From assembly GCA_964016885.1 (NCBI GenBank), contig OZ024743.1, positions 348,998,001-349,062,000 of the forward strand: a stretch of 64,000 bases of DNA, given 5' to 3'. Position numbers and translations under genes: made by a program. Of the stretch, positions 7,546-58,995 are shown one piece after another. The notes under the pieces are model-generated. The model saw only the letters and a list, made by a program, of their open reading frames with translations. It ran no database searches and was not told the origin of the DNA. Position 1 is the first letter of the stretch. Each line of letters opens with the position of its first letter. The stretch is from Eledone cirrhosa. Its lineage: Eukaryota.

Positions 7546-8309
7546 ATGAGTTTTCACACAACAGTATTTCTATAAACACATTCGTCTTCTCTCACTAGTG
7601 TCCCCATAAATTACACAGTTCTCAAGCGAGAAAACTTCCATGATTATATATACTAGTTTTCATTAAACTTAAACTAACAGAGAAATAACAACCACTCTCG
7701 AAAAATTATTGAATCCTTCTCTACCTACAGAAATCTATATCAAAATATACACACTACAAAACAAATAGCCATACCGTAATGCACGTTCACCAACTATTCA
7801 AAACACATCAGATCACTTGACTATTTTACATGTGTGCCACTCGTGAAAAATCATAATTTTATAGTTTAGCATTTGAAAGGATTGTTAATGCCCGGTAGTC
7901 GTAATTCGTGAAAGCGATTAATGGTCTGTATAATTCCTAGATATAAAAGTTGAATAATTATGGGGACTGCTGTCAAGTCCCCAAATGATAATATTTTGGT
8001 GGCTACATATATATGTATTCATATATATATATATATATATATATATATATATATGTGTGTGTGTGTGTGTGTGTGTGTGTGTGTGTGTGTGTGTGTGTGT
8101 GTCTAATTATATATATATATATTAAAGTGTTCAATAATATTCAATGAGTATGTCAAAGAATGAATTTTACAGTAGATTGGAAGCACTCTACGGTAAAATA
8201 AGTTTCCTGAGTTATTAATATTAAAATACAAATATTAATAAAATAGATGTCCTTTTGATCAATTACATTTTATTATACCATATATATAACCCATATATAG
8301 GTCACCAAT

Positions 8310-10236
8310 ACCTCAGAACTCTAAAAGGTAAAATAACTGAAATAAAAATGTTAACAAAGTACTCGTTAAATCGGACAAAACTAATAATTTATATGGGTTA
8401 AGCAAAGATGAATATAACAACTTGATTTTGAAAGAACTTAGGAAAAATTACAAAAAAGCCCCGGCTAAAGATCTTACTGAAATTAATGAAGAAGCCTACA
8501 AATTAATTACCAATTTAGGAATAGAAGGAAGAACTGAGCCATTCTTACCTAGACAGCCGAAGATCAACCTGAAGGATCATAAAAGAAACTTTAAGGGAGA
8601 GATGCCAGTTAGACTGATTGCTCCATCGAAATCGGATATAGGAGTAATCAGTAAAAGCATCATAGATAGAATATTACCCACTCTTAAATTGAGATCTAAT
8701 TTGAGCTTATGGAAAGATACAAACGAGGTCATAGAATGGTACAGGAATATAGATGATAAGAAAAACCATAAATTCATCCTGATGGGCATTGCTAGCTACT
8801 ATTATTCCATAACACCTAACCTTCTAAATAAGGCCCTTTCATATGCTTATAAGCATACTGATCTAACCACGGATGAAATAGATATAATACTAACAGCCAG
8901 AAGAAATCTTATTAACTTCAATAACGAATATTGGACACGCTCAGATAGAGATAGAAACTTTGATATCACTATCGGGGTATCCGATTCCGCGCAAATCACA
9001 GATCTTTTGGGAATTTTCATATTAAACATGATAAATAGAAAACTGCCGGTGATTACCGATGGTTTATATAGGGACGACATTTTATTTACGTTGGTCAAAC
9101 ACAACAATATAGAGTAAAGAAGAATATAATAGAATTATTTAAAGATATGACCTTAAATTAGAAGTAGAAAATGGTACTAAAATAGTTAATTTCCTAGACG
9201 TTACCTTTAACTTAAACACTGGCTTCTATTTCCCAATGAAAACTTAAACTATGTTCATAACTATTCAAATCACCCTAGATCGGTAAAAAGAGCTATAGTA
9301 AATAGTGTGCAAAAACGTATTAATAAAATATCAGCCAATAAAGATATATTTGATGAAAACGCTGAATACTACAACAAAGCGTTAAAAAGAGCAGAATATA
9401 TGAATAATATAGAATATGTAGCTAATAATAATCCAAGTATTATTCCTAATAATAATAATAAAAATAATAACATATATAAGAGAACCTCTAATAATTATAA
9501 TTCAAACACCCATACGCCAAATAAATCGAGAATACGAACTAGATCTAAATCAGTCATATGGTTTGCCCGCCCCCCTGCTTCGGTCGCAGTTAAAACACCA
9601 ATTGCAAAATTATTCTTTAGCGCTCTTGACACCTCTTTTCATACTCAACATAAATACCATTCTATTTTTAATAGACATACCATTAAATTCTCACATTCTA
9701 CAACTATGAACATGGCCCAAAACATTGCCAAATTAAACACTAAAATCCTAAAACCAAACCAGCATAATGATCCTAATAATAGAGTTAACATAAATGATAC
9801 TAAACCAAAATGTAATTGTAAAAATAAAACTGATTGCCCTTTGAAAAATAATTGTCTAGATAGTAATTTGGTCTATAAATGCACTGTAAAAACTGATCAC
9901 AACAGATACAACTACATAGGATCAACCTCTTCGACATTCAAAGCCCGATTTGCGAACCATAAATGATAATTCTTGAACTCTAAAAGGAAATCATCCACGT
10001 CTTTATCACAGCTCATATGGTCATTAAAAGAGAAGAATTTAAAATACTCCATTCTTTGGACAAAACTTCGGAACTGTGGAATTTACGGCAACTCTTGTAT
10101 ATCAAATAACTTCACGCTCTGTACAATGGATACCCTGTTGATTATTAATAATTATGAGACCCTAATTAACAAAAAAAGTGAATTATTTTCTAGTTGCCTC
10201 CATAAAAGCTACGTCCACTTTGTTAGCCTCCCATAA
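8310..10236 (+). pseudogene. PLE polyprotein (RT + GIY-YIG endonuclease), disrupted
   Basis: VKSDKTNNLY, LKDHK..PVRLI, FDITIGVSDSAQITDLLG, GLYRDD, VNFLDVTFNL, YVHNYSNHP, CNC..CPL..C, VYKC..YIGST..FKARFANH, C-terminal CLH; several stops and frameshifts. Confidence 0.9.
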
Positions 10237-10549
10237 AACGAGAAAAAAATAGAGAATAACATTAAACCATTAATAACTAGGTTGCCAGGAATATATAATC
10301 AACAGGTGAAAACATTAATGGCCTTTAATATTGCTTTATGTTGTAGCTATCTATAGAAGAAATAACGTTCGAATGAAAGACACTTGTTCAATAACATGCC
10401 GGAACATTGATACACATAACATTATTTTATTAACTTTGATCAATACCATTATTTCTTTATTTCTTTATTGCTCTATCTATCTTCCTATCTATGTTTTAAA
10501 GTTTAGTTTAATACCGAACCCATACATCTTTACGGAACTTATCTATAAC

Positions 10550-10825
10550 TGTGAATTTTTAATGCGTTTTTGATCTCTTATTTATAGTATAATATAATAT
10601 AGTATATTATAATATGTATGTAATTATATTTTTATATATTTTTAAATATACCTACTGCACTTTAAAATCTAAAATTTAAATCAGATTCAATCTTGAAATT
10701 TAAAACAGATTCAAATGTGAATTTTTGGGTGCATTTTTGATCTCTTATTTATAATATAATGTATTATAATATGTATGTAATTATATATTATATCTTATAT
10801 ATTTTTAAATATAGCTACCGCATTT
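10550..10825 (+). repeat. ~165-bp imperfect tandem duplication in PLE 3' UTR
   Basis: tgtgaatttt..tttttgatctcttatttata..aatatgtatgtaattatatt occurs at ~10550 and ~10716. Confidence 0.7.
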
Positions 10826-56330: not shown

Positions 56331-56829
56331 GCTCGGATTTACACGTCATTTAGAAAATGCGAATAAATTATTAGTAAGCGGCGTAAAAGATCAATGAGCA
56401 AAAATGACTACAACAACAACGACGACAACTGCATGAATATCAGCTATACGATCACAATAAAAATAAAGCAACAAACAAAAATGTTGTACATTACGGTCTA
56501 TCCATCGGTGGTTTTGACGAAATTAAACGTCTAGCTTTTTTGTAAATTTTAACACAGATGTAACTTTGCTTTCTGATTTCGAGATTAAAGGTTATTTTCT
56601 GTGTGTGAAATGTATTATTAAAAAGTTACAATACATTAGATATGGGTTTACGTTAAACATACAAATATTTTTGCTTCAGGTAGCCACTTACACGGTAATT
56701 CAATGATTAGATATCCCATTGTTGAAACTGACAGAAGAATCAATTATTTTTATGTAATTGTGTATACATGTGTATGTATGTATGTATGTATGTATGTATG
56801 TATGTATGTATGTATGTATGTATGTATGT

Positions 56830-58230
56830 ATGTTATCTCTTTCTCTTAATTTCGAGTATATTTTTTTGACCGGCCACCTTCCTGGTGGCAAGGTTGTAAA
56901 AGAAAAGAAATTGTCATCCCTTGAATCGCAAGAATGTTTTGCAAATTTTGAAGGTGCCAGCTATCGCAGCTATTTGTAGACTATGAATTAGGGAGCTGCG
57001 CTCTTTGTCCGCAAATCCAAGTTCAGTCATACTTTGGTCCAAACGGGTTGGTATATAACCCGTAGCTCCAATAATTATGGGTATGAAGCTAAAGGTGTAT
57101 CTTGGATACTGGATTTGCAAACTCCTCATCAATGCTCCGTAGATGTCCTCCTTCTGTATTTTTCTGACAACGTTTACATAAAGTGTGCAGCTGATCTCCA
57201 CAACAGAACAGGTAGGTAGGTAGGTATGTATGTGTGTATGTATGTATGTATGTTTGTATGTATGTATGTATGTATGTATGTATGTATGTATGTATGTATG
57301 TATGTATGTATGTATGTAGGTAAGTAGGTAGGTATGTATGTATGTATGCATGTACGTATGCATGTATGTTCTTCTGGTTTTATAATTTCACAAATTTTGG
57401 CCAATAGAGAGAAAGTCGGTTTCCAACATAGTTACAATACTCTCTCATTGGAATTTACACAACATCGACTAGGTAGATACGTATGCATGACTGCATGCAT
57501 GCATGTGTAGGTAGGGATGTTATTGTATGTGTGGATGTAGATGTTTTGAGTTGTATGTGCGCATGTGTATACGCTTTGTATCAGTACATGTGCAGTTATT
57601 AGATGCAAATATTTGGAATGTTTTACATATTTTTACTGTTCCATTAATGGATTGCACTTGTAATTTTCTAACTAGTCGTGTTCCTTGTGTTCCTGTGAAG
57701 CCCAGCTTCTCTATATGTATGTATGTATGTATGTTCTTCTGGTTTCATAATTTCACAAATTTTGTTCCCAATAGAGAGAGAGTCGGTTTCTAACATAGAC
57801 ACAAGACTCTCTCATTGGAATGTACACAGCATCAACTAGGTAGATTATGTATGTATGCATGTTTTGAGTTGTATGTATGCACGTGCTTTGTATCTGTACA
57901 TGTGCAGTTATTAGATGCAAAATATGTGGAATGTTTTACATATTTTTACTGTTCCATTAATGGATTGTACTTGTAAATTCCTAACTAGTTGTATTCTTTC
58001 TGTTCCTGTGAAGCATAGCTTCTCAAGATTTATATTGAGGCAGTTACTAACATACCCCAGTGCCCCAATAATCACAGGCATTAATCTGGAGGTGTAATCA
58101 GGGTGGAGTATCTGCAGATTTATCATCAGTTCTGCATAAATATTCTCCTTTTAGCTAATCTTTGATATTATATTGGCATCTGCTGGGCAGCTAATTTACA
58201 CTACTGTGCATTTTTCTTCTCCCTGTCCCA
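56830..58230 (-). mobile_element. Cluster of three 5'-truncated RLE-type (R4/Dong/NeSL group) LINE 3' ends within (ATAC)n
   Basis: CSVVEISC..IPIIIGATGYIP..GTFKICKTFLRF (56914-57207); ISCPAD..MPVIIGALGYV..GTVKICKTF (57908-58215); a shorter duplicate 57368-57712. All are separated by (TATG)n. Confidence 0.8.
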
Positions 58231-58740
58231 TATAATAATGTATGTATGTATGTATGTATGTATGTATGTATGTATGTATGTATGTATGTATGTATGTATG
58301 TATTTATGTATGTATGTATGTATGTATGTATGTATGGGATTGGCTCTGTGCACAGTCTTTCCTCAGAAAAAATGTTCACGCACAGGCATTGCACAATAGC
58401 TTAATTGATAATTATTAATAATATTATATCGTGCAATGGCCATACTCGATAATGAGGGGGCAGCCATCATGTATGTATGGGTCTATAGACAGACAACAAC
58501 ACGGGTACACAGACATATAATGATACATATTTTTATTCTATTTATAGTCCCGAAACTTCGCCAGTGCGTCAATAATATCTTACCAAAACATGTATTATAT
58601 GTTTCTAAGTGTATTGGAACGAAACTGTAGGTCATTCATCACACACACACAAACACACACACACACACTCACACACACATGCACACACACACGCGCGCGC
58701 ATAATACATGCATAGTATATATATTTATATATATATATAT

Positions 58741-58995
58741 ATTTAAAGGTTAAACATGTTTCAATGAATAAATCAAAGAATGAGTTTTACAATAGATTGG
58801 AAGCACTCAACAGTTGATTTTCCATTTTTACCATCACTGAATCTTAACCATCTACTAAGTCAGGGTATGTCATGCATCATCTTATTTTATCTGGTGAGGA
58901 CGTAGTGTTGAAGATAGCTCAGTACATCTGAAATATGTATAATAAAATATACTTGATCATACGAATGTCTATTTTTGTTAATATTTTGAATTAAT
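58741..58995. mobile_element. Miniature derivative of the 8121-11966 PLE family (inverted tail + pLTR with mutated HHR)
   Basis: 58741-58810 resembles 8121-8191 and 58830-58995 resembles 11815-11966; core CTGGTGA..GAAATATGTATAATAAAAT; (TA)n flanks. Confidence 0.8.

Follow-up and report, generated by a model that had tools for sequence, protein, structure and literature searches.

The window analysed here is a 64-kb stretch of the Eledone cirrhosa genome (assembly GCA_964016885.1, contig OZ024743.1, positions 348,998,001 to 349,062,000, forward strand), in which ten insertions consist of two arms of a Penelope-like element (PLE) joined at their 5' ends with the sense strand running outward, one arm ending at a short outer end (S) and the other at a tailed outer end (T). 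This S+T rule is real and genome-wide, and the near-obligate presence of one S and one T per insertion was not found in the published literature searched. The insertions are read as truncated, head-to-head copies of autonomous PLEs, for which both ends of a break in (TA)n would have primed reverse transcription at two internal sites, each probably set by a hairpin via a bound dimer, and this reading is given a probability of approximately 0.68.

The S+T end rule

Six families (A to F) were defined by the 3' ends of the insertions in the window, and the arrangement of ends was counted in 600 kb of this 3.0-Gb genome, made up of three 200-kb stretches taken without selection. A layout in which one end abuts (TA)n and its counterpart stops 25–170 nt short of it was found in 32 of 86 inverted-repeat clusters, compared with 0.74 ± 0.87 (maximum 5) in 300 random placements, which bears out the regularity and genome-wide abundance suspected in a first-pass annotation made from the window's letters alone. 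A few of the 32 layouts resemble merged or false calls; 14 of them carry a canonical hammerhead core near the outer end, facing outward. The other clusters abut (TA)n at both ends (4), at one end (11), or at neither (39). Roughly scaled, 32 layouts per 600 kb would put the genome-wide number of these insertions in the order of 100,000, and searches with each family 3' end returned 247–1642 first-look candidates per family, which are lower bounds.

The ends were then typed in a set of 169 pairs, retained from 230 candidate pairs after the removal of duplicates, of pairs whose arms were separated by >60 nt, and of every unit except one per tandem array. The S+T combination was present in 161 pairs and S+S in none, with three T+T pairs and five with an intermediate end; all three T+T pairs continue into the open reading frame (ORF), and S is seen further out in two of them. 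The same combination was found in 17/17 pairs from unselected DNA and 32/34 bystander copies, and de novo detection over the loci gave 294 S+T calls in 51 clusters. In multi-unit insertions of family F, the outer ends obey the rule in four of five arrays, with the fifth showing T only. Arms range from ∼25 nt to several units in length, and outer ends have 1–8 TA letters in common with the (TA)n target. If each end chose its site freely, no more than half of the pairs would be S+T, and one RNA with two sites would give S+T throughout; the lack of S+S is proposed to follow from a single RNA offering two start sites.

The nine insertions of the first-pass annotation, described as head-to-head with outward sense 3' ends and (TA)n flanks, are all present, although a tenth S+T insertion at 26235-26332 had been overlooked. 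The short site was rightly described as fixed within each family with the other end extended (by an extra 44–134 nt), and its recurrence in the three family A copies and at 11966 and 58995 was found again.

Junctions and the origin of the two arms

The inner junctions differ from copy to copy, with 136 distinct junctions among 161 S+T pairs, as expected from the earlier proposal of fixed end points and a new junction per event. By the BLAST ends, 78 junctions overlap, 18 are flush, 52 have 1–15 extra bases, and 13 have more, and at least two common bases occur in 60 of the 96 flush or overlapping junctions (15–20% by chance). A miniature inverted-repeat transposable element (MITE) or fold-back DNA transposon was rejected for the asymmetric ends and the many distinct junctions, which contrast with the symmetric terminal inverted repeats and fixed unit of such elements.

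Amplification of the insertions as short palindromic units, in the manner of non-autonomous retrozyme-like fold-back elements, is very improbable. It would fit the tight clustering of 5' ends in family F (147 of 158 arms between -41 and -80), a center sequence that recurs six times among pattern-selected F copies, and the excess of short over long copies; however, the 12 resolved unselected F centers all differ, the diversity of junctions runs against it, ORF-bearing read-through copies belong to the same subfamilies, tandem ribozyme monomers are absent, and family D has no canonical hammerhead core. The first-pass annotation's class of non-autonomous, retrozyme-like elements was abandoned, since the parents are autonomous, arms extend up to several units, and the rule is also found in arrays with intact ORFs.

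The reach of the arms points to two separate primings. Among the 161 pairs, the reach is greater for the S arm in 45, greater for the T arm in 49, and equal in 67; the S arm can be longer by up to 3.6 kb (8121-11966), and at 12 loci, two of them in the window, the arms have no common sequence. Two primings are needed because the S arm is often the longer and because these 12 loci have non-overlapping arms, which upholds the earlier suggestion that both ends of the (TA)n break served as primers. The arms nevertheless derive from one source: subfamily alleles occur in both arms in 141 of 230 cases (5–22% after shuffling), and private alleles do so in only 20 of 173, for which reason pervasive gene conversion between the arms was rejected as the cause.

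Alternatively, antisense RNA (the model of PMC3846280) or the first complementary DNA (cDNA) could fold back at a small palindrome and be copied into a mirror arm. Junction hot spots do lie at self-complementary spots (an 8-nt palindrome in family B, ribozyme stem II in family F), near-equal arms are found in 67 of the 161 pairs, and the arms have alleles in common. A copied arm cannot gain a tail, however, so the T arm should always reach at least as far as the S arm, which is contradicted by 45 pairs, and later deletions would have to account for all these exceptions and for the 12 loci with unrelated arms; self-priming is thus a distinctly unlikely source of the second arm.

A twin hairpin at the two probable start sites

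In families B to F, S and T each lie ∼5–11 nt before a bulged hairpin of ∼20–40 nt with the form RCUC-stem-loop-UN-GAGY, which occurs twice between the ribozyme and the start codon of these elements, here assigned to the Hydra clade. After S, RCTC follows at 4–14 nt with a matching downstream GAGY in 20 of 51 clusters (shuffle 3.1 ± 1.7). When pairing was not required, the outer letters were A-T in 11 clusters, G-C in 6, crossed in none, A-A in 2, and partnerless in 12. The second hairpin stands directly after T in read-through copies of families B, C, and E; it was predicted and then found for families F (362 matches) and D (14 matches), with none in reversed controls. Elsewhere in five parent bodies, the pattern occurs three times.

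The hairpin was also followed in metagenome relatives, where 77 loci were reduced to 47 with a match near the N-terminus and to 32 with enough upstream DNA. Two hairpins 55–83 nt apart were present in 17 of the 32, one in 7, and none in 8 (shuffle 0.1), the two-hairpin loci covering 13 of 25 sequence clusters, and insertion ends lay 5–11 nt before a hairpin in 5 of the 7 loci checked. Across 59 instances, a 4-bp stem is followed by a 2-nt 3' bulge that begins with U (57/59) and by an upper stem of free sequence, whose first pair is kept in 57/59 and which has at least two pairs in 42/59, compared with 7.7 in shuffled sequence and no more than 12 in any other register. A script was used to count the pairs, as the MAFFT alignment of the six hairpin regions was poor, with varying loop lengths. 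Judged from sequence, the twin hairpin is a new, covarying feature that recurs in relatives from other organisms; the first-pass annotation had overlooked it. Rfam gave no match in the window at the gathering score and, at E<=1 over 10 parent or relative loci, only microsatellite-driven microRNA matches and tRNA, with none on the hairpin or the ribozymes; neither the twin hairpin nor an obligate S+T rule was found in the published literature in a search that had subscription papers and Repbase outside its reach. Short palindromes are without hairpin 2 and are likely dead ends.

Two primings could also have used two RNAs of the same source locus within an asymmetric dimer, one subunit always taking S and the other T. 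The product would look alike, displacement of one cDNA strand would be unnecessary, and common source alleles would be expected if one locus is active per cell. This arrangement requires a built-in asymmetry to yield 0 S+S in 169 pairs, which two hairpins 55–140 nt apart on one RNA would give directly, and we regard it as unlikely, though deserving attention. A single reverse transcription, after which the nuclease would resolve the intermediate and so leave the tail (PMC8557442), agrees with the preference of the nuclease for AT-rich DNA and the position of both ends at TA-like spots. It would leave unexplained the RNA-type structure (one-sided bulge, compensatory pairs, and fixed distance from both ends), and PMC11167929, in its available text, links both ends to start sites of the reverse transcriptase (RT), so that this route is highly improbable.

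Hammerhead ribozymes and the template

Full type I hammerheads with a palindromic stem III are present in families B, C, and E; in the window, the full descriptor finds them in 8121-11966 (S arm), in 21539-22067 (T arm, with a core in its partner arm), and in 39367-41150 (both arms). Family A keeps the core in 40/40 copies but fails the strict stem I test because stem I is interrupted, and family F has a type I hammerhead with a U3-A8 core (TTGAGAA in 36/39) that folds unconstrained (L316-L335, L348-L359), with full stem III and a GUC site 18–19 nt before S; its short copies accumulate within stem II. As the strict descriptor missed both A and F, its negatives do not prove absence. The description of all insertions as hammerhead-bearing therefore held for B, C, and E in full and for the A core, but not for 58741-58995, where the core is mutated, for 54022-54218, where only the 3' half remains, or for family D, where the canonical core is absent and CAGTATAG is found in 42/44 copies. 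Family D copies (26365-27214 in the window and L116-L145) are numerous and 99% identical despite this core, which means either mobility without a working hammerhead or an unrecognized variant of the core. Both the U3-A8 variant and opposite-strand ribozyme pairs 100–700 bp apart have been recorded (PMC4209133, available text).

The cut site is passed by 306 of 316 arms, with the qualification that the queries favor arms including that site, and the passage of so many arms suggests that the template was probably uncut or re-closed RNA. Junctions formed at the ribozyme cut were rejected, only 2 of 316 arms ending there.

Parent elements and clade

All six families are 3' ends of autonomous PLEs by their sequence, which strengthens the link to PLEs drawn at first reading. 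Each family was traced to a PLE ORF, with RT followed by a C-terminal GIY-YIG domain in a single frame: intact in family E (755 aa, between two repeats, locus L208) and family F (717 aa, in tandem arrays), partial or broken in families B, C, and D, and an ORF or its remains in family A. The families had been called unrelated, which is true of their 3' DNA (best match 19–25 nt) and untrue of their proteins, B to F being 39–54% identical. Units here are 3.4–4.6 kb long. Families B to F are placed in the Hydra clade by motifs, by pairwise identities (own parents and 12 database relatives), and by a likeness to published supplements judged by eye. The marks behind this placement are DKT, YRDD, and CxCx5C in the proteins of B to F, RWR in E, F, and C and RWK in D (no RWK match in the B frame read), and insertion into (TA)n in all five; in addition, the GIY-YIG domains of E and F have no CCHH finger (at most one Cys between half-motifs). 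Pfam searches left the Hydra ORFs unrecognized. Family A, with a CTNRKCIIC linker (CX4CxxC, within CX2-5CxxC) and two Cys inside GIY-YIG (locus L032) as in the CCHH pattern, is a Neptune/Nematis-type PLE by these motifs, without a choice between the two.

In parent copies, the sequence continues past T into the 5' leader and the start codon or ORF, so T is not the RNA end; in family A, S and T both lie within the first ORF codons. The earlier view that one priming started at the true RNA 3' end is thus replaced by two internal sites.

Family F arrays of two to five full units were seen at C1:91.47-91.49 Mb, C1:437.20-437.21 Mb, and three more loci (L348-L359), with 99.8–100% identity within the two arrays compared and a unit length of 3542 bp in one and 3531 bp in the other; they fit copying from circular or multimeric RNA. 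In a ∼2.2-kb tandem array at C4:349.89-349.92 Mb (L013-L022, L043), one family A palindrome recurs in every unit together with a small F insertion, which is a later tandem amplification of host DNA.

Proposed mechanism

In the proposed sequence of events, the GIY-YIG nuclease would cleave both strands of (TA)n, one hairpin would be held per subunit of the dimer, and each DNA 3' end would pair with UA(U) just upstream of its hairpin. The two subunits would share one template RNA (uncut, multimeric, or circular), with the cDNA of the front enzyme displaced by the rear one, and both enzymes would run through the hammerhead site and stop early, often at structured or self-complementary spots. The cDNA ends would then be joined via short microhomology or small inserts, and host repair would fill in the remainder. 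The dimer, hairpin binding, and the single template are likely, the dimer step leaning on analogy with PMC11167929. We give even odds to the broader proposition that the twin hairpin of Hydra PLEs is an undescribed, clade-wide double dock for an RT dimer, by which one RNA is copied twice, from each cut end of (TA)n, with the one-tailed head-to-head insertion as the standard product, distinct from the L1/R2 type of priming at the RNA 3' end.

Several points weigh against this scheme. Most family loci were retrieved with a query that contained the tail, a bias that conceals S+S and of which the unselected and bystander sets are free. Junction overlaps taken from BLAST ends are approximate, and alleles shared by the arms fit one RNA or two transcripts of one locus alike. 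The hairpin motif was first derived from these same tails, 8 of the 32 metagenome loci do not carry it in strict form, and the covariation of the outer pair (11 A-T, 6 G-C) may rest on few events, the families being related; on free folding, the 4-bp stem is well backed in E and C and weak in B and F (pair probability 0.05–0.39). Family A has no such hairpin and shows S+T in 17/17, so the hairpin is not required in every clade. Few family C ends entered the count of end-to-hairpin distances. Finally, no public reads bridge the window's own junctions, including the family B center, where loose ends at AATT sites resemble library chimeras. An assembly or read fold-back artefact would leave junctions unbridged in this way, but it is hardly credible for insertions whose ends are fixed and asymmetric, whose arms in the window differ by up to 11% with indels, and some of whose arms have no common sequence; raw reads of another sample also contain short ends of family D that continue into (TA)n (116 reads), as well as three strand-switch joints with 1–3 start places each.

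Relation to known systems

Published systems are cited here from the portions of those reports that were available. Insertion into (TA)n is established for the Hydra clade (PMC8557442), and its C-terminal endonuclease-positive (EN+) members, including Hydra-1_Obim, resemble families B to F in RWK/RWR, DKT, the CxCx5C linker, GIY-YIG without CCHH, and the (TA)n target (PMC8557442); their hammerhead has a counterpart in B, C, and E and, as a variant, in F, but not in D. The published units are shorter (<3 kb), and no twin hairpin, two-site rule, or 77–134 nt tail was seen in the available text (PMC8557442). The class had been thought poorly described; however, inverted 5'-truncated Penelope copies with head-to-head arms, a tail at one end, and palindromes or overlaps at the junction have been published (PMC3846280, PMC8557442), and an inverted 5'-truncated copy joined at the 5' end with a tail at one outer end is the form of 161 of the 169 pairs here. 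The published tail is optional and 30–40 bp long (PMC3846280, PMC8557442), whereas S+T is near-obligate here, and the self-priming model (PMC3846280) is at odds with the long S arms and non-overlapping arms. The origin of inverted PLE structures and their one-sided tail has been named as an open problem (PMC8557442, PMC3846280, PMC11167929).

Poseidon of the green anole cuts and extends both strands in vitro from two internal start sites that bound the tail, with a similarly AT-rich target, no need for ribozyme cleavage, and a predicted dimer (PMC11167929). Both of its sites fall within a single AC-rich stem-loop of the ORF, with no strand preference and no twin motif in the available text (PMC11167929), whereas here each site precedes its own 5'-leader hairpin and genomic products show one site per DNA end. 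Non-LTR retrozymes likewise have type I hammerheads and an origin in Penelope repeats, but form head-to-tail tandem monomers with a ribozyme per unit (bioRxiv 10.64898/2026.07.22.740005); membership was rejected for the head-to-head arms, variable junctions, and coding parents. The available text of an octopus repeat survey does not mention hammerheads (PMC13282606).

In L1 twin priming, two primers at one target site produce an inversion, and the arms copy adjacent, non-overlapping parts of the RNA from the poly(A) end. Here, by contrast, the arms begin at two fixed internal sites, and the upstream region that they copy is the same for both.

The counted S+T rule separates models, an RNA signal of ∼20–40 nt stands at both start sites, and young intact ORFs are at hand. 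Telomerase has the Penelope RTs as its sister group (PMC8557442), so a conserved RNA element for docking would be relevant to how these enzymes choose a template site. If transcribed, the insertions may supply double-stranded RNA in large amounts, and the short copies could easily be mislabelled as MITEs.

Insertions and other features of the window

The S+T insertions of the window, at a density ∼3 times that of the unselected stretches, and related arms are as follows (strand in words).

8122..8283, minus: family C (Hydra clade) T arm, 64 nt upstream of S plus a ∼98-nt tail, terminating in (TA)n; hairpin 1 at 8185-8212
8288..11966, plus: family C S arm, near full-length decayed element with 3' untranslated region; S end into (TA)n
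8288-10237, plus: ORF remains of this S arm (DKT, YRDD, CxCx5C, YIG; frameshifted)
Core 11874, cut after 11912, plus: type I hammerhead of this S arm
18661..19307: family A (Neptune/Nematis-type) palindrome; T arm minus 18661-19006, S arm plus 19002-19305; 5-nt overlap, inter-arm identity 94.5%
20849..21066, minus: second copy of the family B S arm, within a local ∼710-bp tandem duplication (20356-21066 / 21067-21755)
21538..22067: family B (Hydra clade) palindrome; S arm minus 21538-21753, T arm plus 21748-22067; hammerhead core 21870, cut after 21914; hairpin 1 at 21976-22015; junction on the parent's 8-nt palindrome
22201..22729: family A palindrome; T arm minus 22201-22483, S arm plus 22482-22729
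26235..26332: family F S+T insertion; S arm minus (36 nt), T arm plus, of tail only; no sequence common to the arms
26365..27214: family D (Hydra clade); long T arm minus (26367 to ∼27100, 134-nt tail), short S arm plus 27104-27214; hairpin 1 at 26456-26494; non-canonical ribozyme core; junction near 27103
30105..30653: family A; S arm minus 30105-30275, T arm plus 30273-30653; second T site
39366..41150: family E (Hydra clade, young); S arm minus 39366-39827, T arm plus 39823-41150; full hammerheads in both arms (39466-39417, 40961-41010); hairpin 1 at 41067-41086
42465..42802, minus: single older family B arm, T end, full hammerhead (42678-42634); partner arm absent
54022..54218: family F (Hydra clade); S arm minus 54022-54083, T arm plus 54084-54218; junction within ribozyme stem II; hairpin 1 at 54146-54169
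58741..58995: family C, older; T arm minus, of distal tail only (58744-58807), S arm plus 58829-58995; no sequence common to the arms

Three entries differ from the first-pass annotation. The insertion at 8121-11966, taken for a small non-autonomous element, is a near full-length decayed copy with an RT/GIY-YIG ORF; 58741-58995 is no palindrome, its arms being without common sequence; and the third family A copy (30106-30640) is present, with its tailed end lying at 30653, at the second T site. The arm at 20849..21066 was not counted as a separate insertion, being part of the local duplication.

Another hammerhead-bearing family is present at 22977-23615 as two tail-to-tail copies whose 3' ends run into (CA)n, with a single arm at 61260-61476; it was not accepted as an S+T member on account of the inward orientation of its ribozyme (23476-23449, minus strand) and of these (CA)n ends. 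At 26040-26145 and in the C2_13256 cluster, a further family has 3' ends that continue into (TA)n; it forms S+T palindromes elsewhere, and ∼45 small clusters are of this kind.

The family C insertion at 8122..11966 is flanked by two ∼90% identical copies of a long interspersed element (LINE) type (1-4310 and 12432-17142; RVT_1 match). Broken ORFs at 45670-49139 resemble a Helitron Rep/helicase (one frame tested, no Pfam match). A repeat of ∼200–230 bp with (ATT)n runs, similar to a short interspersed element and which we take to be of octopus type, is found at 17846-18262, 25085-25317, 31145-31690, 35216-35432, and 49577-49783.

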